UHGV virus genome: UHGV-0198113
From: a virus
Length of the DNA stretch: 39,138 nt
Strand: one strand, 5' to 3'
Shown: piece after piece, positions 4,473-29,790 of the stretch
Layout: each line of letters opens with the position of its first letter
Position numbering within the stretch: the stretch's first letter is position 1
Made by a program: the position numbers and the translations under genes
Notes under the pieces: model-generated
Seen by the model: only the letters and a program-made list of their open reading frames with translations
What the model was told of the DNA's origin: nothing
The model's database searches: none

Positions 4473-4504
4473 CGTAAAGACTCCTACTTTTAAATAAAAT
4501 GGAT

Positions 4505-4530
4505 ACCCCTCCCTTTTTACAGGGAGGGGT
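4505..4530 (-). terminator. stem-loop (10-bp stem ACCCCTCCCT/AGGGAGGGGT) between two minus-strand giant genes; terminator or attenuator
   Basis: Perfect inverted repeat with 6-nt loop; T-rich tract follows on the minus strand (complement of 4480-4504). Confidence 0.4.
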
Positions 4531-4567
4531 TACCTACGGACACATTACTGCCCGCAGGCAGTCTGTC

Positions 4568-7500
4568 CTAAGTGCGATCCCCTAACTGTTTACCGTTAAG
4601 TTCACGTTTCAGTACAGCTAAAATCCATTTCCACGCTTTGCTCGTGATATGGTACGGATTACGCTTTGTTATCATCACTTGTTCATCGCCGGAACGAACT
4701 TCAAAACTTTGCACGTTCAGTTGATCTTGACGAGTATTGGTTTCATCAAAGATTTCTAAATTGCAGCTGAAGTTCAACTCATACCCCTCTGGGTTGTCGC
4801 CCGGCAACTCAAGGACGATATAAAGGTCTTGGCCTGCCCGTAGATCCACGGGAGTTAAGCTTATTGCTTTACCCACATCAGAAGATGTCGACAAAGCAAA
4901 TTCGACGATGTCAGTTGCAGATAAGAAAGCATCTTTCTGTGCATCACCGATAATCACTTTCCCTGGCCAGTTGCTTTTAATCGTTCCCGACACACGCGCG
5001 ATGCGATAATGTGCTTTACTAACGCCCTGTGCGAATCGCAAGATCAAATTTCCACGATGTTTATCTGATGCAGGCGACGTGGTACTCCACGCGTTATTCC
5101 ACGTAGAGTTCTGAGAAACCAAAGCACCGCGAGCTAACTTACGATCGTAGAACTGCGCAGGTAGTTGACCTTCATGCGACAAAGAAGCAACACCTTGTCC
5201 CAGAGGTAAACCTATTGCTTCGGTAAAACGGAACTCAGATTTAATCTCGTACGATGCGGGGTCTATTGCGGTCTGGGCATAATCGGCATCACGAGCATCC
5301 GAAAGCTGACCGATAGAACTATCTACGTACGATTCAAACAAGCCACGCAAGTAATGATACTTATCAATGTCAATATTAGATGTAACCGGGTCTATTAAAC
5401 CATGGCTAATCGTCAAACGACACTTCTCGCTGAGTTCACTAAACGCCAGCCCAACGCCATCGCCAGCAAAATAATCTACCAAATCAAACGGAAGTTGGAA
5501 CTCTACTTGGCGTTGTTTAACCGCTGTTGTGTTAAACTGCGAGAAAGAAAGTGCTAATCGTAAGACACGAGTTTGAACATTATAACGGTAACGTATCATT
5601 CCCCTTGGGGCGTGAACAGGAGAAATCTTATCCTTGCTTACACCCCAACCTAAAAGGTCAAGAATTGCTGGATTAGTTTCATCGCCATTAAATAACACGT
5701 CTTTGGTAGTTGCAGAAACAGCGGTCTCATTTGCTGTTTCCATCAACATCACCCCATCGTTTGTTTCAAACGTTTTGTACCACGTCTCATTAGTACGCAC
5801 CGTACCAACACCCACTTTGCAGGTCTTATCCGTAAGATTAAAACGAACGTATCGACGTCCTACAGAACTACCTTGTGAACTAGCACAGAGTATAAGATCT
5901 GGAGCTGCTGTGAGTGCTTTTGTCCCGCCAACATCATCAACATCAAAAACAAACGACCCTTCGAATGTGGGGGCACTATTTTCTTTAGGGTTGAATGGTG
6001 TAAACCAACAATACGGCGTTGCACCTTCGGTCGAGAAAATTAGCTGTAAAGCAGTTTTAACATTTAGCCCATGCGAATAAGTAAGCAAACCGCGACTCAA
6101 GCTTACAGCAGTCCCGCCACTTCCCGCCGTTAGCATCTTACGATAAACCAACGCACGTGGTTCGGGAATAGCGCGGTTCAATAACGGTAATCTGGGGTTA
6201 TCTGTCAGCGACCAGTCGACCACTTTTAACCCGTGGGCGTTTCGCGTGGTCACATGGTTGCCAATTTCTGCACTTGTACCAAAGTCGAAAGTGGTGTCGA
6301 AAGTTACCGTCTTATTCGCGTAATTTTCGCCTGCGTAAACATCTACGTATCCGATAAAACCGCGCTCAGGATCAACCTGGTTTGATTCGATCGGCTCAGC
6401 ACGAGAATACAGAGAACCTGTGAGCATGTTAACGTAAAGATAATGACGAATCCCAACATGTGTTGTGACGAAATCGGCTAACAACTCTACGTGTGTTTCG
6501 GGACCACTGAAATATACAGGGTAATCACCGTCATATATCTCAAACTGCACCGCAGCTGATTTTGCCGTGTCGCTACATTCCGCTTTTATTGCAACAACAT
6601 AGTTCTCGACGTTTGGTGAAGTTTCGTAAACAGTTAATAATGGCGATTCACCGGAGGCAACTTGCACACCGTTAATGTACACGGTTACGGGGCCACCACC
6701 GGCAGCATAAACCCATAGCTTAGACTGGTACGCTTTGACCCGAGCTTTAGCAAGAACAGTAATTACAGACTGATCACCCATTTGTGTTGCTGTCTTTCCA
6801 ACAGGCACAGAGTGATAGCCCATTAACGGTGGTTCATCAATACCGTCCCAAGTAATTCCTGTTCCTTTGCTAACTTTTGCTTCCGGCCAGGTAGTTTCAA
6901 GCTGGTTATTTGGCGAAAACCAGTTGAACATTGGCGTTGTCTGAAGATCAATTGCACCGGTCAGGGTAGCTTCGTCTTTGTTACCATCAAACAAATAAAA
7001 GACTTTCAGATCCTGTACGGTTAAAGCAGTACCTTGACTATTAAACCGCCACTGCGCACCTTGTACCGCAGCAAAATCTGTTACCGTACCTTCTTTCGCA
7101 TTTGCAATCGCTGCGGCAACAACTTCAAGCCTTGCAGAAAGTTCTTTGAGAATATTAGGCACTACAGCCCGTCCCTCGACTAAGCCATTTTGGTTAGTCG
7201 CATAACGACCTATACCGTAAATGGATTGAGAAGCCTTATAAATGCCTAATTCTGACCACTCGTGATGGTGGTTCTTTTCCGCAAGTCCTTCAACTGCCGT
7301 ACTTAGAGCCGAGGACAGCGGTTTATCAACATCGGCGGTATTGTCAGCATGTTCCAATCCTAACTCTGCTTTGGTAATCTGGCGAGAACCGTCGTTCATC
7401 GCCTTACCGTTTAGCAGCGTCGTTTTCGGCACATACCCGGACAAGTCCGTTGAGTACGGTGTCAGTGACCCCGGTGTTGCTGCAACGCCCGTTGTTTCCG

Positions 7501-15883: not shown

Positions 15884-15908
15884 TTTCAGATATATTTTAC
15901 TTAGGTGA
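15884..15908 (+). promoter_or_regulatory. conserved 25-nt motif TTTCAGATATATTTTACTTAGGTGA (copy 1), candidate phage promoter or regulatory site
   Basis: Near-identical second copy at 20208-20232 (one mismatch); both intergenic and upstream of plus-strand gene blocks. Confidence 0.4.
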
Positions 15909-20157: not shown

Positions 20158-20188
20158 GTGGGAGCATTGCTCCCACTTTCTTTTTTGT
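20158..20188 (+). terminator. rho-independent terminator closing the paralog operon
   Basis: 8-bp stem GTGGGAGC/GCTCCCAC with 3-nt loop, followed by TTTCTTTTTT. Confidence 0.7.
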
Positions 20189-20207
20189 TCAGTACGATTA
20201 GAAATAA

Positions 20208-20232
20208 TTTCAGATATATATTACTTAGGTGA
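20208..20232 (+). promoter_or_regulatory. conserved 25-nt motif TTTCAGATATATATTACTTAGGTGA (copy 2)
   Basis: Identical to copy 1 except for one A/T; lies between a terminator and the secreted-protein cassette, about 48 nt upstream of the ATG at 20281. Confidence 0.4.
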
Positions 20233-20280
20233 GAGTTACGATTAACTCTTTTAACCTGTTAACCTTTAAGGAGTATTTCA

Positions 20281-20736
20281 ATGAAAACTTTTATCGCATT
20301 CTTAGTAACCCTTTTAACTTTCGGTCTCAATAACGCTTACGCCGCAATCGGAAGCTGGGAAGGACTTCAAAGTCCGGGAAATGCTGTTTACGAAATCGAA
20401 GACGAAAATGGGAACAGCTTGTCTATCAACTGCGATACCGCAACGGCTAATCGTAAGTTTTACGGTCGCATGGTTTGGTATTACGGTGAACCGGTCGGTT
20501 CAACTAATGCCGAAGACAACGAAATGAGTATTGTCGTAAACGGCAAAAACTATATCATTCCCACTATTGACGGCAGCGACAAAGCAGAAAAAGCTTGGGT
20601 TGCCTTCGCTAATGCTATCGCTAATGCAAAAAGCTTCGGTGTGGCTATCAACGGTAACGAAGCCGCTAACTTTATTGTAGATGGTGAGCGTCTGCCCGAA
20701 ACTTTCTTTAAGAACTGTGGACATAGCCGTCCTTGA
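20281..20736 (+). CDS. small exported protein with signal peptide (151 aa)
   Basis: Track ORF; AAGGAG RBS; N-terminal hydrophobic signal 'MKTFIAFLVTLLTFGLNNAYAA'; two Cys; paralog of the next gene. Confidence 0.8.
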   Translation: MKTFIAFLVTLLTFGLNNAYAAIGSWEGLQSPGNAVYEIEDENGNSLSINCDTATANRKFYGRMVWYYGEPVGSTNAEDNEMSIVVNGKNYIIPTIDGSDKAEKAWVAFANAIANAKSFGVAINGNEAANFIVDGERLPETFFKNCGHSRP

Positions 20737-20773
20737 TAAATAACTTAATTTTTAAACTAAAAGGAATATAACC

Positions 20774-21244
20774 ATGAAACTGTCTAACATCTTCTTAGCT
20801 ATCGTTTTAACTGTAAGCGCCACTGCTGCACAGGCCATTCCGAACATGTGGGGTAGTGGCTTTGCAATGGGTGAAACCGAGTATGGTATCGATAACGGTG
20901 GATGGGGTATTACCATTAGCTGTACCGGTAATCCAGATGAAAACAACATTTTACCACACAAGATCTTTATCTCTAAAGATGGTAATGTGGTGGCCAACTC
21001 GGAAGATAACGACATTAGTTTCGTTATCGATGGTGAAGAGTTCTGGGGTGTAGTTCCTGACGGCACACGTAATACCGACAATACTTGGGTTAGTTTTGTA
21101 AAAGCAATCTCTACAGCAACTGAGTTTGACTTATACCTCGACCAGAAAAAGGTTGCTACCTTTAACCCATCAGCCAAAAACGTTAAGAAAGTGATGGACG
21201 GTAACTTCCTCGAATCTTGCTGGAACACCGAATACGAACAATAA
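20774..21244 (+). CDS. small exported protein with signal peptide (156 aa), paralog of 20281-20736
   Basis: Track ORF; signal 'MKLSNIFLAIVLTVSATAAQA'; shared segments (I-x-C, SEDN/AEDN, VVNG/VIDG, WV[AS]F, C near the C-terminus). Confidence 0.8.
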   Translation: MKLSNIFLAIVLTVSATAAQAIPNMWGSGFAMGETEYGIDNGGWGITISCTGNPDENNILPHKIFISKDGNVVANSEDNDISFVIDGEEFWGVVPDGTRNTDNTWVSFVKAISTATEFDLYLDQKKVATFNPSAKNVKKVMDGNFLESCWNTEYEQ

Positions 21245-21251
21245 TTACAGG

Positions 21252-21267
21252 AAAAAAAGGGGGGGGG
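21252..21267. repeat. homopolymer tract A7G9 in an intergenic region
   Basis: Direct reading: A run 21252-21258, G run 21259-21267, overlapping a weak hairpin (GGGGAC/GTCCCC) and about 25 nt upstream of the RBS of the next gene. Confidence 0.8.
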
Positions 21268-21304
21268 ACTTCGTGGTCCCCGTTCTATTTAAGGAGTGCG
21301 TGAA

Positions 21305-21691
21305 ATGAATATTAAAACTATACTTTATACTATCATTATTTTCTGCGCTATCGGTATTACCGGTACGTACGCTTTCGGTGAATCGGATATCCGCTACTAC
21401 GACCCAGCACCAGATTCCCCAATTATTAATCCTGATGAAACACCAACACTAATGCGGAGCTTCGGTAAACTAGAGGTGTACCGCCTGATGCGTGACAGTA
21501 CATGCACCGGACTAATCATTGCCGATAACGGCGCACGTGTCTATCAACGTCTAACTGATATTGCTTGCGAACAACCAAAAGTCATGTCGGTTAGTATTCA
21601 CCCGTTATCAGTTGGTAATTATACCGCTGTAGATTTCTTTCATAATGCCGAATTAATCGGTCGTGTTACTTTAAATCGCCCTGCTGAATAA
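21305..21691 (+). CDS. small exported protein with signal peptide (~128 aa)
   Basis: Track ORF 21296-21691 trimmed to the ATG 8 nt after AAGGAG; hydrophobic N-terminus 'MNIKTILYTIIIFCAIGITGTYAFG'; Cys-containing. Confidence 0.7.
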   Translation: MNIKTILYTIIIFCAIGITGTYAFGESDIRYYDPAPDSPIINPDETPTLMRSFGKLEVYRLMRDSTCTGLIIADNGARVYQRLTDIACEQPKVMSVSIHPLSVGNYTAVDFFHNAELIGRVTLNRPAE

Positions 21692-21709
21692 TCTAAAGGA
21701 GTAGTTACG

Positions 21710-22195
21710 ATGAAACGTTTACACACACTGATGTTCTTTCTGGCTTTCATGTTTATCGGTGTTACACCAACTGTTGATGCAGCATCAGTGAAAGATGCGC
21801 TTACATGCGACACCAACGCATGGGACGGACAACCTAACGCGTGTCCAAACATCAACGACGTGTACGATACCGATAAGTCATTTAAAGCGGTTGTTGATAA
21901 AACACTGGACCCGGTAGGATTGAATGGTATGTTCGGTGCTAAAGGTTACATGGATGGCCCCGGCGGTGCGATGTACCCGGTAAACATTAATAACAAAATC
22001 TGGATTGAAAGTGGTGGCTGTAAAGCTAACGCTTGTGGCTGGGAATATATCGTAACGTTATACAACCCACAAACCAACGAACTCGTCGGTTATTACTACA
22101 ACATCGACCCCGGTTACCTGATTTGGTTCGGTGATATCGGTGTTGCTGAATTCGCTTATCTGGTTAAGAAATACGCGGAACAATCTAAATACTAA
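21710..22195 (+). CDS. exported Cys-containing protein (161 aa); possible Ivy-like periplasmic inhibitor
   Basis: Track ORF; AAGGAG RBS; signal 'MKRLHTLMFFLAFMFIGVTPTVDAA'; 'GGCKANACGWEY' is a CKxxxCG loop like the Ivy CKPHDCG motif (from memory). Confidence 0.75.
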   Translation: MKRLHTLMFFLAFMFIGVTPTVDAASVKDALTCDTNAWDGQPNACPNINDVYDTDKSFKAVVDKTLDPVGLNGMFGAKGYMDGPGGAMYPVNINNKIWIESGGCKANACGWEYIVTLYNPQTNELVGYYYNIDPGYLIWFGDIGVAEFAYLVKKYAEQSKY

Positions 22196-22206
22196 GGACG
22201 TTTATC

Positions 22207-22617
22207 ATGAAAAATATCATCAACACGCTTCTCGTTGCGATCGCTGTTCTCTTCACTGCTAACGTGACAGCAAAAACAATAAAATTACCGGATGGTATCA
22301 AATACGTCAACAGTACCGATGATTTCTACTGTACAGAAATCGATGGTTTGTACTGCCAGACGAAGAATCTGTTTAAATACAAAGGTAACAGATACGTATT
22401 CGTTGTTGAGCAAGGCGGTGCCTGGTGCTACGACAGCCCTATGTCGGTACTTAACCTCGAAACGTGGAAAGCCCAACGTCTCGAATACAACGACAAGCGT
22501 CTGTGCTCTGGAAATAACAAACCGTTCTTCCAAGTCGTAGATGGTGTGCCGTGGGTAGGGATATTAGACACCTCTGAAAAATCTATCGTTGTGGCTATGG
22601 ATAAACTTAAAATTTAA
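22207..22617 (+). CDS. small exported protein with signal peptide (136 aa), 4 Cys
   Basis: Track ORF; signal 'MKNIINTLLVAIAVLFTANVTA'; Cys spacing similar to the next gene product. Confidence 0.75.
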   Translation: MKNIINTLLVAIAVLFTANVTAKTIKLPDGIKYVNSTDDFYCTEIDGLYCQTKNLFKYKGNRYVFVVEQGGAWCYDSPMSVLNLETWKAQRLEYNDKRLCSGNNKPFFQVVDGVPWVGILDTSEKSIVVAMDKLKI

Positions 22618-22627
22618 GGAGTAACTC

Positions 22628-23017
22628 ATGCGTTTCATTTGCGCTTTAGCATTCTTCTTCTCTCTGAGCGTAACTGCTTCTACCCAGGTTAACGATTTAC
22701 TGCTGACAGCAAACAACAACGACGATTATCAGTACAATCCACCCAGTTTTGAAGTCTGTGAGAATGGAGAAACAACCTGTCAAGAAGTCGGCGCAGATGG
22801 GCGCTACATTCTGGTGAAAGCCGACGGGGGCGCGATGTGCCCAGCCGGTTACTATTTCCTACTTGATTCTGTCGCAAAAGAGGTTCTTCCTATCACTACG
22901 AAAACGTGCGACCCTACTGTTGTCTTATCGCTTGCTAAAAGCAAATCTCGCGACCGTTACTTAATCGTTATCGAAGAACGCGGTGAGATGGCAGGCGCTA
23001 TCGAATTAGATTACTGA
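22628..23017 (+). CDS. small exported protein with signal peptide (129 aa), 4 Cys
   Basis: Track ORF; AAGGAG RBS; signal 'MRFICALAFFFSLSVTAS'; Cys pattern C-x6-C...C...C. Confidence 0.75.
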   Translation: MRFICALAFFFSLSVTASTQVNDLLLTANNNDDYQYNPPSFEVCENGETTCQEVGADGRYILVKADGGAMCPAGYYFLLDSVAKEVLPITTKTCDPTVVLSLAKSKSRDRYLIVIEERGEMAGAIELDY

Positions 23018-23029
23018 GTGTAGTCTTGG

Positions 23030-23065
23030 CCCCGGTACGTTCCGATTCGTCCGGGGTCCTTTTTA
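23030..23065 (+). terminator. rho-independent terminator (bulged GC-rich stem + T tract)
   Basis: CCCCGG...CCGGGG stem followed by TCCTTTTTA, directly after the stop at 23017. Confidence 0.5.
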
Positions 23066-23571: not shown

Positions 23572-23580
23572 TTAGCCCGG

Positions 23581-23608
23581 CCCCGACCACGTTCGGGGTT
23601 TCTTTTTT
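23581..23608 (+). terminator. rho-independent terminator
   Basis: CCCCGA/TCGGGG stem followed by TTTCTTTTTT. Confidence 0.55.
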
Positions 23609-27292: not shown

Positions 27293-27325
27293 CTTTTTAC
27301 TTTTTTGCGTCTCTAAGGTTTGCAA

Positions 27326-27769
27326 ATGGAAATTTATTTATTGAACGCATCCTCTAAAGTCGGTGAGCAACAAGCAAGTGACTTACTTAAATTACACTAC
27401 CGTTACTTAGACCACCAAGCTACGTTACTAAAAATCAAAATGGCCGTGCCGAAGTTAAATGCACGGCAGCTGATCGAGGGTAACTGCGTAGTTCTGGTGT
27501 ATCTGGACGGTGTGGCAGTAGGTTATTGCAGTTACCGGAATCGTAATGGTTCCCTCAAGATACGTTCACTGTATGTGTTGCCGGATTATCGACAGCGTGG
27601 CGTAATGAAAGAGATTTTTAAAGCAATCGCAGCCGATGAAGCTTTCAGCGAGATCGTTGTTGGCATGTATGCGAAGTGCAAAGAAGCAAAAGAATATTTC
27701 ATCCGACGCGGTTATCAAGCGGTTTACTCACGCGATCGTGAGTGGGTCGATTTTAGCAAATCATTCTAA
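27326..27769 (+). CDS. GNAT-family N-acetyltransferase (~147 aa)
   Basis: Track ORF 27320-27769 trimmed to ATG; motif A-like 'VLPDYRQRGVMKEIF' (Q/R-x-x-G-x-G/A). Confidence 0.7.
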   Translation: MEIYLLNASSKVGEQQASDLLKLHYRYLDHQATLLKIKMAVPKLNARQLIEGNCVVLVYLDGVAVGYCSYRNRNGSLKIRSLYVLPDYRQRGVMKEIFKAIAADEAFSEIVVGMYAKCKEAKEYFIRRGYQAVYSRDREWVDFSKSF

Positions 27770-28493: not shown

Positions 28494-28991
28494 ATGCTAA
28501 CGATACGTAAAGAATCTGAGATCGGCGGCGACCTTTTTAATGCACCTGAAGCTTATAAGGTCGTTACCATTAACTGCGTGGGCGCAATGGGTCGCGGTAT
28601 TGCTTTAGCCTGTCGAGAACGCTACCCTACGCTTTATCAGGATTATCGTAAACGTTGTCGCGAAAACGAAATCAGGATTGGAAATGTCTACGTTTATCCT
28701 GACGAAAAGTGTATCCTGCTCCCCACAAAAACACACTGGCGTCTAAAGTCCCAAGTTTCTTATGTTACTGCGGGTATTACCGCATTAGCAGATTGTGTTG
28801 AAAACCTGGACACCTCTGTTGCTATCCCTCCACTGGGAATGGCCAATGGTTGGTTACGTCCTTGGGAAAGACAAGAAATCTTTTTGTGGCTTTACGACAA
28901 ACTTGAAACAAGGAGACAACATCACACGTTATATCTACCCGATGCATTGTACCAAGAAGCTCGGTCTTTAATTCCAAACTCTTTTAAATAG
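28494..28991 (+). CDS. macrodomain protein, TARG1/OARD1/DarG-like (165 aa)
   Basis: Track ORF; 'GDLFNAPEAYKVVTINCVGAMGRGIALACRERYP' matches the TARG1-type macrodomain N-terminal signature (GDLF...H/NC...MGAGIA) as I recall it; downstream 'PTKTHW' and 'PPLGMANGWL' align with the Lys and G-x-G-x-D regions. Confidence 0.7.
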   Translation: MLTIRKESEIGGDLFNAPEAYKVVTINCVGAMGRGIALACRERYPTLYQDYRKRCRENEIRIGNVYVYPDEKCILLPTKTHWRLKSQVSYVTAGITALADCVENLDTSVAIPPLGMANGWLRPWERQEIFLWLYDKLETRRQHHTLYLPDALYQEARSLIPNSFK

Positions 28992-29091
28992 ATATTATCA
29001 TTAGGGCACACAACAAAGGAGTATTAGCTGTCCGCGCCGTCATTTCGTCTTACGGAATACGGAAATGTATAAATCCAACTGGAGAAGCAAA

Positions 29092-29790
29092 ATGTTTCGT
29101 ATCTTCTTTCTTTTACTGGTAACACTTTTCGCGTTTAACGCACAGGCGTCAACGTCAACGCCACAATCTAAGCATCATCGTGAGTTTGCACAAATCCAAC
29201 ATCGATTCGAAAAGGTCAGTCCTTTAATTGTGGAAATCTCCCGAAAGCAAGGCGTTGATCCTAAATTGATGGTTACGCTGATTTACCGTGAATCGCGTTT
29301 TGATCCTAAAGCTTACAATAAAAGCTCAAGAGCACACAGCCTGGTACAGATGGTTCCGAGTACCAAACGTAATTTGCTAAAGCTTTACGGAAAAGAATTA
29401 GGTCTTAGTCAGAACGCCGATTTGTACAATCCGCGTAATGCTGTTTTGCTGGCTGCCGCGTATATTAAGCATCTTGAAAAGGGGTTAACTAAACGACTCA
29501 AACGCAAGCCCACCATGGCTGAAGTTGCGTTAGCTTACCACTGGGGTGAAAGTGGTGCACACGCACGAATCAAAAGCAAATCTCGAGCAGCACAACGAGA
29601 AATGGCAGGGTTTATGAAAGACGCAGCATTTTACAGTGCGAAAATCGATGTACCTGCTGCTGTGGGCTCGGCTCCACGTCAGCTTGCGTTTGCGAAGAAG
29701 TCACCACGTCAGATTCAATTGGCGGAAGTCAGTAGAATTTGGGATACGATAAACACGAGTTTTCCAATCAATAGAGGAGTTGCCCTTTGA
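29092..29790 (+). CDS. exported lytic transglycosylase (SLT domain) with Sec signal peptide
   Basis: Track ORF 29065-29790; start moved to the ATG with GGAG RBS at -7 (29065 is an alternative). Signal 'MFRIFFLLLVTLFAFNAQA'; SLT signature 'RESRFDPKAYNKSSRAHSLVQMVPST' (catalytic E-S, Q-M/LMQ-type motif). Confidence 0.75.
   Translation: MFRIFFLLLVTLFAFNAQASTSTPQSKHHREFAQIQHRFEKVSPLIVEISRKQGVDPKLMVTLIYRESRFDPKAYNKSSRAHSLVQMVPSTKRNLLKLYGKELGLSQNADLYNPRNAVLLAAAYIKHLEKGLTKRLKRKPTMAEVALAYHWGESGAHARIKSKSRAAQREMAGFMKDAAFYSAKIDVPAAVGSAPRQLAFAKKSPRQIQLAEVSRIWDTINTSFPINRGVAL

Follow-up and report, generated by a model that had tools for sequence, protein, structure and literature searches.

A divergent Ivy-family protein with a non-canonical CKANACG loop in an exported-protein cluster of a jumbo phage

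The stretch of DNA analysed here (the window; 39,138 nucleotides of UHGV virus genome UHGV-0198113) comes from a jumbo phage with a distant relationship to the SPN3US/phiEaH2 group. Among its products are virion proteins of 1,400 aa, a baseplate protein and proteins resembling SbcC/SMC and RNase H, and neighbouring proteins in it are 31-35% identical to SPN3US and Erwinia jumbo-phage proteins. Six consecutive small genes (20281-23017) were found whose products all have signal-like N-termini. This 'secretome' cluster comprises two YfjT-like paralogues, a gp180-like protein, an Ivy-like protein and two four-Cys paralogues (136 and 129 aa), and at least three of its families (YfjT, Ivy-like and 136-aa) are also cargo of E. 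coli CP4-type islands.

The cluster opens with two tandem exported YfjT-like paralogues (phrog_3429) on the + strand (20281..21244; 20281-20736 and 20774-21244), whose orthologues in the related phages L006 and L012 carry precomputed PF27224 YfjT matches. A tight four-gene unit containing the Ivy-like gene follows on the same strand (21305-23017), with gaps of 18, 11 and 10 nt between its genes. Its first gene (21305..21691, +) encodes an exported 128-aa protein (phrog_9424) homologous to SPN3US gp180; the likely start is the ATG at 21305, which has AAGGAG 8 nt before it, and not the GTG at 21296, and the gene calls in L006 and L012 likewise give 128 aa for the gp180 homologue. Downstream of the Ivy-like gene (21710..22195, +) lies, in conserved adjacency, the gene for a 136-aa exported four-Cys partner (22207..22617, +; phrog_8968; SPN3US gp182 homologue), for which no family or structure match and no relative among solved-structure sequences was found. 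The fourth gene (22628..23017, +) encodes an exported 129-aa four-Cys protein (phrog_5248; SPN3US gp183 homologue), which is a distant paralogue of the 136-aa protein.

In SPN3US (L009, JN641803), the flanking gp180, gp182 and gp183 are kept and an unrelated gene, gp181 (4475-4966), occupies the slot of the Ivy-like gene. Its product is a 163-aa exported or membrane-anchored Cys-rich protein. We considered gp181 as a divergent Ivy-like orthologue and rejected this on a BLASTP E-value of 2.6 and a different cysteine pattern. It looks like a cassette replacement, in a slot that appears to exchange cassettes.

A phiKZ-type early-promoter-like motif, TTTCAGATATATATTACTTAGGTGA (20208..20232, +), heads the exported-protein cluster, 50 nt upstream of its first gene. 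A second exact-core copy is present at 15884-15908, at the head of a + strand block, with 0 matches expected by chance in the window; the repeated form is TTTCAGATATAT(A/T)TTACTTAGGTGA. The surrounding 108-nt element (20178-20285) recurs at 286 places in 59 SPN3US/Erwinia jumbo-phage records, about 5-6 per genome and mostly unannotated. Megablast matches at 20200-20285 were considered as a tRNA and rejected, as ARAGORN finds none there and the element is the repeated early-promoter-like motif. The motif matches published early-promoter motifs of 201phi2-1 (WTTTRARR_BTATATTACDWHDGTG) and phiKZ (TATATTAC) (PMC7058600 Table 2), and such motifs are held to be recognised by virion RNA polymerase (PMC7598289). 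Judged from its sequence, the motif at 20208-20232 would act as a promoter. Sigma-70-like sites are no more frequent than chance in the window.

Terminator-like hairpins, predicted by consensus scan only, bracket the four-gene unit: one (21264..21281, +) lies between the YfjT-like genes and the unit, and a weak one (23039..23057, +) lies after it, with a stronger one at 23579-23600. Early expression of the cluster is plausible. Because the hairpin at 21264-21281 separates the motif from the Ivy-like gene, and may attenuate read-through, early expression of that gene is not assured. A homopolymer tract of A7 then G9 (AAAAAAAGGGGGGGGG) at 21252-21267, intergenic and shortly before the four-gene unit, supplies part of the 5' arm of the same hairpin and could be prone to slippage.

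The Ivy-like gene was delimited by the ORF listing, homology, fold and dN/dS. It starts with an ATG at 21710, 8 nt after a Shine-Dalgarno AAGGAG (21696..21701, +), and its stop codon, included in the coordinates, ends at 22195; the translation equals the reported sequence of 161 aa, signal peptide included. The exported 161-aa protein recorded here in the initial annotation is thus exact as an ORF, and a signal-peptide-like N-terminus can be read from it. A Sec signal peptide is predicted at residues 1-24 (21710..21781, +), with cleavage after VDA: in the N-terminus, MKRLHTLMFFLAFMFIGVTPTVDA followed by AS, a basic n-region, a hydrophobic core of 12 residues and the cleavage motif V-D-A can be recognised. 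The hydrophobic N-terminal segment is present in all homologues, and both structure models have a low-pLDDT helix at the N-terminus. By this heuristic reading, the protein is predicted to be periplasmic, as in the Ivy family.

Two cysteine pairs are conserved in the protein. C33 and C45 (C-x11-C-P; 21806..21844, +) lie in an N-terminal helical segment and are kept throughout the new subfamily: no close-clade sequence departs from them, and in a 35-sequence family alignment their conservation is 90% or more; a disulfide between them is probable. Canonical Ivy is without this pair, its only conserved cysteines in the alignment being those of the loop. C104 and C109, the second pair, are likewise unchanged across the close clade and kept in 90% or more of the family, and are aligned on the Ivy loop cysteines (C57-C62), so that a disulfide would close the six-residue loop CKANAC.

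The loop C104-K-A-N-A-C109-G110 (22019..22039, +) is the equivalent of the Ivy CKPHDCG loop by in-register alignment and secondary structure. It lies within residues 100-113, ESGGCKANACGWEY, and forms the tip of the beta-hairpin made by strands 96-104 and 112-119, with a pLDDT of 92 for residues 101-110 in the model. The bare pattern is weak evidence, with two occurrences of CKxxxCG and 56 of C-x4-C when the window is translated in all six frames, and the case rests on the homology tests. The loop resemblance is nevertheless beyond chance, since the spacing is invariant across homologues and the register with the Ivy loop was the same in every method used. The C-K-x3-C-G spacing first noticed in the initial annotation therefore holds at the level of alignment.

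Its second point, the replacement of the key histidine by asparagine, was also borne out. Among the canonical Ivys retrieved, all 119 with a loop have CKPH[DN]C, and in the window protein P, H and D, three of the four non-cysteine residues of CKPHDC, are replaced. The close clade has the consensus CK[AS][NHD][AT]CG, where the His position is taken by N 11 times, by H three times and by D once; Lys at loop position 2 and C-x4-C-G are strictly kept, and some 64%-identical homologues retain His (CKAHACG). In the wider subfamily His is mostly kept, N and G also occurring at this position, and the loops include CEAHNCG, CEPHNCG, CKPHACP and CKPHQCD. The loop His itself reportedly has a specific role in inhibition by Ivy, as described by Abergel et al. 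in 2007.

Searches with the single window protein gave nothing above a curated cut-off. The Pfam scan had no match at E<=1, and the PADLOC and NCBIfam scans returned nothing above any cut-off; the sole match among 18,950 NCBIfam models was the Ivy equivalog NF007443, at 16.7 bits against a cut-off of 180. The sole PHROG match was phrog_13619 (E 0.006), and phmmer against PDB sequences found E. coli Ivy (1gpq/1xs0) at E 0.8 with the loops in register. A 64%-identical homologue (P0003) reached 16.8 bits against a PF08816 cut-off of 21. As a separate observation, phrog_13619, labelled 'unknown function', is canonical E. coli Ivy, which (P0074) matches it at 1.3e-95 over all 157 positions.

Since these direct scans stayed below the cut-offs, homology was established via profiles and structure. 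An alignment of 16 close homologues (A1; 56-89% identical), used in a full HMMER scan of 1.84 billion representatives, retrieved 58 proteins, exported proteins among them. The profile of the 35-sequence family alignment (A2) matched all four distinct Ivy PDB sequences (1gpq/1xs0 at 1.9e-12; 1uuz and 4ps6 at ~2e-9) and no non-Ivy PDB sequence below E 0.4, and 30 of the 35 members match PF08816 individually. The wider subfamily, with CE[AP]HNCG and similar loops, links the window protein to PF08816; the bridging proteins P0025-P0027 score ~1e-21 to the close-clade profile and 22-27 bits to PF08816 (cut-off 21). The bridges were not used in a third alignment (A3), made of 18 proteins named Ivy or C-lysozyme inhibitor by their sources. 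Comparison of A1 with A3 by hhalign gave 93.8% probability and E 1.8e-7 over 88 columns, with CKANACG placed on CKPHDCG. When the seven loop columns were deleted from both alignments, the register was kept at E 2.3e-4 (reversed control, 0.21), so the link to Ivy is not the loop alone. In addition, tblastn of the window protein against plasmids reached genes of Klebsiella for which RefSeq gives the name 'Ivy family c-type lysozyme inhibitor' (E 1e-11; 98% coverage at 29% identity).

Predicted structure and fold searches gave the Ivy fold, an antiparallel beta-sheet flanked by helices, with 13-17% identity to Ivy in the structural alignment; the AF2 model was built from a deep alignment and is hence not fully independent of the sequence homology. 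The homology to Ivy suspected in the initial annotation is thus found by both profile-profile and structure comparison, which supports that reading. A chance motif in an unrelated small secreted protein would fit the missing Pfam match, the single-sequence E-values to Ivy of only 0.005-0.8 and the abundance of C-x4-C in the six frames. Profile-profile, transitive profile, direct BLAST and fold evidence nevertheless converge on Ivy and nothing else scores comparably, by which the chance reading, now exceedingly improbable, is effectively refuted. These data indicate that the window protein is a divergent member of the Ivy family (PF08816). Since the single sequence fails the curated Pfam and NCBIfam cut-offs, it is an outlying subfamily member and not an Ivy orthologue (equivalog).

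The gene order around the Ivy-like gene is kept in two further metagenomic phage lineages, L006 and L012-L014, as YfjT-like, 128 aa, Ivy-like, 136, 129, 158 and 202 aa, SMC and GNAT, onward to an SLT-domain gene (see below). The Ivy-like protein of L006 is 89% identical to that of the window, and those of L012-L014 are 64-66% identical. The gene also resides among the cargo of E. coli CP4-type islands, beside DUF932, antirestriction, RadC and CbeA/CbtA genes and with a dynamin-like GTPase/YjcZ/patatin block upstream; it is also found on some enterobacterial plasmids. The 136-aa gene follows the Ivy-like gene at a distance of 11-16 nt in the window (pair at 21710-22617), L006, L012-L014 and the E. 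coli islands L015-L017 (L015:7001-7912; L016/L017:4942-5853), the islands having an 80%-identical 136-aa homologue 16 nt after the Ivy-like gene. Because phages and L015-L017 carry the same adjacent pair, the two genes are a module common to phages and islands. In islands L001-L005 the Ivy-like gene occurs by itself, and no remnant of a partner could be detected.

Across lineages, the partner is 78-82% identical and the Ivy-like protein, the faster-evolving of the two, 63-67%. For both genes, pairwise dN/dS ranges from 0.10 to 0.22, and dS is near saturation between lineages, values that indicate an old divergence under purifying selection. An identical 15-nt spacer in L012 and L015 was considered as a sign of recent transfer and rejected, as dS values of 1.4-2.2 mark old lineages. 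Among 50,697 deposited phage records, tblastn with the window protein found no homologue, and three tblastn queries together found a single Ivy-family gene, in Escherichia phage PHB10. Foldseek against the BFVD viral structures found nothing similar (best E 0.16, TM<=0.29).

Some relatives of 280-316 aa (P0025, P0026 and P0067; L010:3998-4936 on Klebsiella plasmid NZ_CP017451, WP_228706714) have two domains, an Ivy-like domain joined by a linker to a four-Cys domain of ~135 aa with a weak DUF7908 match, and loops without His (CEQGNCG, CEANNCG) occur in some of them. We asked whether this C-terminal domain is homologous to the 136/129-aa proteins, as a 'Rosetta stone' fusion, and rejected the idea: the cysteines align, but hmmsearch was not significant, and the hhalign value of 9.7% fell to 2.7% once the alignment was deepened. 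When the profile of the neighbour was run against the database, neither a fusion nor a match bearing PF08816 came up.

The closest known system is Ivy (E. coli YkfE, PDB 1GPQ/1XS0; P. aeruginosa Ivyp1, PDB 1UUZ/4PS6; PF08816; NF007443), from which the window protein differs by its CKANAC loop in place of CKPHDC and by its extra N-terminal Cys-pair segment. Ivy is a lone chromosomal gene of the Rcs regulon, whereas phages and mobile elements carry the window clade, together with its conserved partner, the 136-aa gene. According to the account in PMC4262234, the disulfide-closed CKPHDC loop of Ivy is essential for inhibition, and family members with a 'CExxDxC' loop are mentioned there. Ivy-family proteins with non-canonical loops, such as P. 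aeruginosa Ivyp2 and the plasmid protein WP_228706714, which RefSeq names an Ivy-family protein and which bears CEQGNCG, resemble the window protein in being without canonical CKPHDC; the window clade is set apart from them by its own loop consensus and by 24-31% identity. The PHB10 Ivy (MK524177, QBJ00744.1; L011 3950-4363, 137 aa, annotated as hypothetical) is phage-borne like the window protein, but is of the canonical type, being 37.5% identical to E. coli Ivy, scoring 117 bits to NF007443 and having the loop CKPHSCP. It lies in the lambdoid moron slot of a temperate phage, between the holin-endolysin-Rz cassette and terminase, and has no similarity to the window protein detectable by tblastn.

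T4 Spackle (gp61.3) is an early, signal-peptide-bearing, disulfide-containing periplasmic inhibitor of the tail lysozyme gp5 and acts in superinfection exclusion (PMC7677548, PMC7650644). As a phage-encoded small periplasmic protein shielding the peptidoglycan of the infected cell, it is, by analogy, our favoured functional model for the window protein. Spackle is a 75-aa alpha-helical bundle with allosteric or 'wall' blocking, whereas the window protein has a beta-rich Ivy-like fold for which loop insertion is proposed; the two share no sequence similarity, and Spackle was not matched in PDB, PHROG or fold searches. MliC/PliC, PliG, PliI and the T6SS immunity protein Tgi2 are periplasmic or membrane-anchored and engage the substrate cleft of peptidoglycan glycosidases directly (PMC7677548, PMC7650644). 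Their folds and families differ from the window protein, and none of them was found in sequence or fold searches with it.

We propose that the window protein is a Sec-exported divergent Ivy and, by analogy with this family, most likely an inhibitor of glycan-strand-cleaving enzymes that would protect the wall, probably with its 136-aa partner; taken as a whole, we consider this reading probable. The CKANAC loop, disulfide-closed and displayed at the beta-hairpin tip of the Ivy fold, would insert into the active-site cleft of a lysozyme-type muramidase or lytic transglycosylase and inhibit it stoichiometrically, as Ivy does. Such inhibition would protect the sacculus of the infected cell and, with early expression, could lead to exclusion of superinfecting phages or resistance to lysis from without, the co-inherited exported partner probably working with it. 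Early expression and a wall-protecting role comparable to that of Spackle are favoured, with modest confidence, because the cluster is headed by the early-promoter-like motif. The analysis shows the ORF, its export-signal features, the homology to Ivy, the predicted fold, the register of the loop, purifying selection and the conserved pair; that the disulfide forms, that the protein inhibits, which enzyme it acts on, when it is expressed and what the partner does are inferences.

As to the target, the replaced loop His makes one that differs from or is broader than C-type lysozyme the best-supported reading. Loss of classical lysozyme inhibition is quite possible, since the His is absent and a RefSeq-named Ivy-family relative has even Gly in its place. 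According to PMC10139938, P. aeruginosa Ivyp1 and Ivyp2 inhibit MltB in vitro, and E. coli Ivy and MliC inhibit MltA/B only weakly, which tells against lytic transglycosylases as the target. A bolder proposal, which we put forward tentatively and regard as rather doubtful, is that the Ivy-like and 136-aa genes form a mobile two-gene 'cell-wall shield', an early periplasmic superinfection-exclusion or anti-phage module directed at the virion-associated lytic transglycosylases or lysozymes of incoming phages. It would be common to the jumbo-phage clade and the P4-like (CP4-type) E. coli islands, and the N/H/D residue of the loop would track the enemy enzymes.

One candidate target is encoded in the window itself. 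The exported lytic transglycosylase mentioned in the initial annotation is real: an SLT-domain protein (29065..29790, +) matches Pfam SLT PF01464 at 57.2 bits, phrog_4067 at 2e-48 and an MltC/EmtA-like NCBIfam model, and the alternative start at 29092 gives a signal peptide directly, with the signal-like N-terminus MFRIFFLLLVTLFAFNAQA. The gene is conserved in L006 and L012. That the Ivy-like protein is a dedicated inhibitor of this enzyme, keeping it in check until lysis and so setting lysis timing as suggested in the initial annotation, would agree with the predicted periplasmic location of both proteins, with the conservation of both genes together in three related phage lineages and with the ability of Ivy-family proteins to inhibit lytic transglycosylases in vitro. 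The two genes are, however, 7 kb apart with several terminator-like hairpins between them, the E. coli islands carry the Ivy-like gene and its 136-aa partner with no SLT gene nearby, and SPN3US-type phages keep the flanking cluster genes with an unrelated gene in the Ivy slot. The pairing is therefore possible but improbable, and nothing links the two genes specifically. Against the inhibitor reading as a whole, no peptidoglycan hydrolase gene is adjacent to the Ivy-like gene in the phages and islands examined.

Two further explanations bear on whether the protein inhibits such enzymes at all, and for whose benefit. The Ivy-fold protein may no longer inhibit any peptidoglycan-cleaving enzyme, its scaffold being reused for periplasmic binding (of the 136-aa partner, an envelope protein or a toxin) or persisting as a neutral passenger. 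In favour of this are the substitution of the loop His, by N in the window protein and by N, D or G in relatives, the loss of P and D from CKPHDC, the additional N-terminal Cys-pair segment absent from canonical Ivy, a conserved neighbour that is an uncharacterised exported protein and not a hydrolase, and the fusion of some relatives to an unrelated C-terminal four-Cys domain. Against this, the loop geometry (C-x4-C-G and Lys at position 2) is strict in the close clade under purifying selection, His is kept in CKAHACG-bearing homologues and most of the wider subfamily, and Asn could, by general chemistry, still donate hydrogen bonds to catalytic carboxylates; we judge loss of inhibition unlikely, though a serious possibility. 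If instead the protein protected its bacterial carrier from animal C-type lysozyme, as chromosomal Ivy does, it would be host-fitness cargo picked up by the phage. Its closest homologues are indeed cargo genes, found in CP4-type islands of E. coli and on plasmids of enterobacteria of gut or clinical origin, and temperate PHB10 carries its canonical-type Ivy in a moron slot after the lysis cassette. Yet the phage copy lacks the His that is considered crucial to inhibit C-type lysozyme, and purifying selection has conserved the gene in no fewer than three lineages of jumbo phages akin to lytic SPN3US/phiKZ-type ones, for which a long-term host benefit is less obvious; we give this explanation little credence.

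What is new here is an Ivy subfamily that is divergent and mobile, comes with a partner gene, has a non-canonical loop and has a stable home in a clade of jumbo phages; no description of a phage-encoded Ivy was found in the searchable literature, which is a part of the whole. Ivy has so far been studied as a Gram-negative chromosomal defence against animal lysozyme, and possibly as a regulator of the cell's own lytic transglycosylases. With a conserved, selected and probably early-expressed relative in jumbo phages, the reach of the Ivy family would widen to conflicts between virus and host and among viruses, and the same two-gene module in E. coli mobile islands points to a conflict role too. 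As a wall-protecting inhibitor, the protein would join T4 Spackle, so far the sole periplasmic lysin inhibitor characterised in a phage, as a second and structurally unrelated example. Where canonical Ivy has its loop His, the natural variation between N, H and D is a ready-made series for the question of target specificity. Pfam, NCBIfam and PHROG annotation misses the Ivy-like subfamily or gives 'unknown function', and the label of phrog_13619 could be updated to Ivy.

Several minor observations concern the homologues and the genes nearby. In five E. coli homologues of 213-227 aa (P0008, P0009, P0011, P0012 and P0015), the calls start ~65 codons further upstream (MKLPVKLLMSLISLVSVIARAG...); the extension is in frame with the MKRLH start and has a hydrophobic N-terminus of its own, and results either from a start called too far upstream or from the fusion of a small upstream ORF through loss of a stop codon. 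The Logan entries P0013 and P0014 are chimeras with dynamin-like or YjcZ sequence. The SLT protein of the window is stand-alone, 232-241 aa long, with a cleavable-looking signal peptide and an E-S catalytic motif (YRESRFDP). It may be an exported endolysin. The best-matching PHROG profile, phrog_4067, is 980 positions long, with the SLT domain at 635-848; owing to this length, the SLT domain of other phages is part of a large protein that is probably virion-associated. Between the SbcC/SMC-like and SLT genes lie genes for a GNAT acetyltransferase (27320-27769) and a Macro-domain protein (28494-28991), both conserved in L006 and L012, which may serve host takeover or anti-defence.
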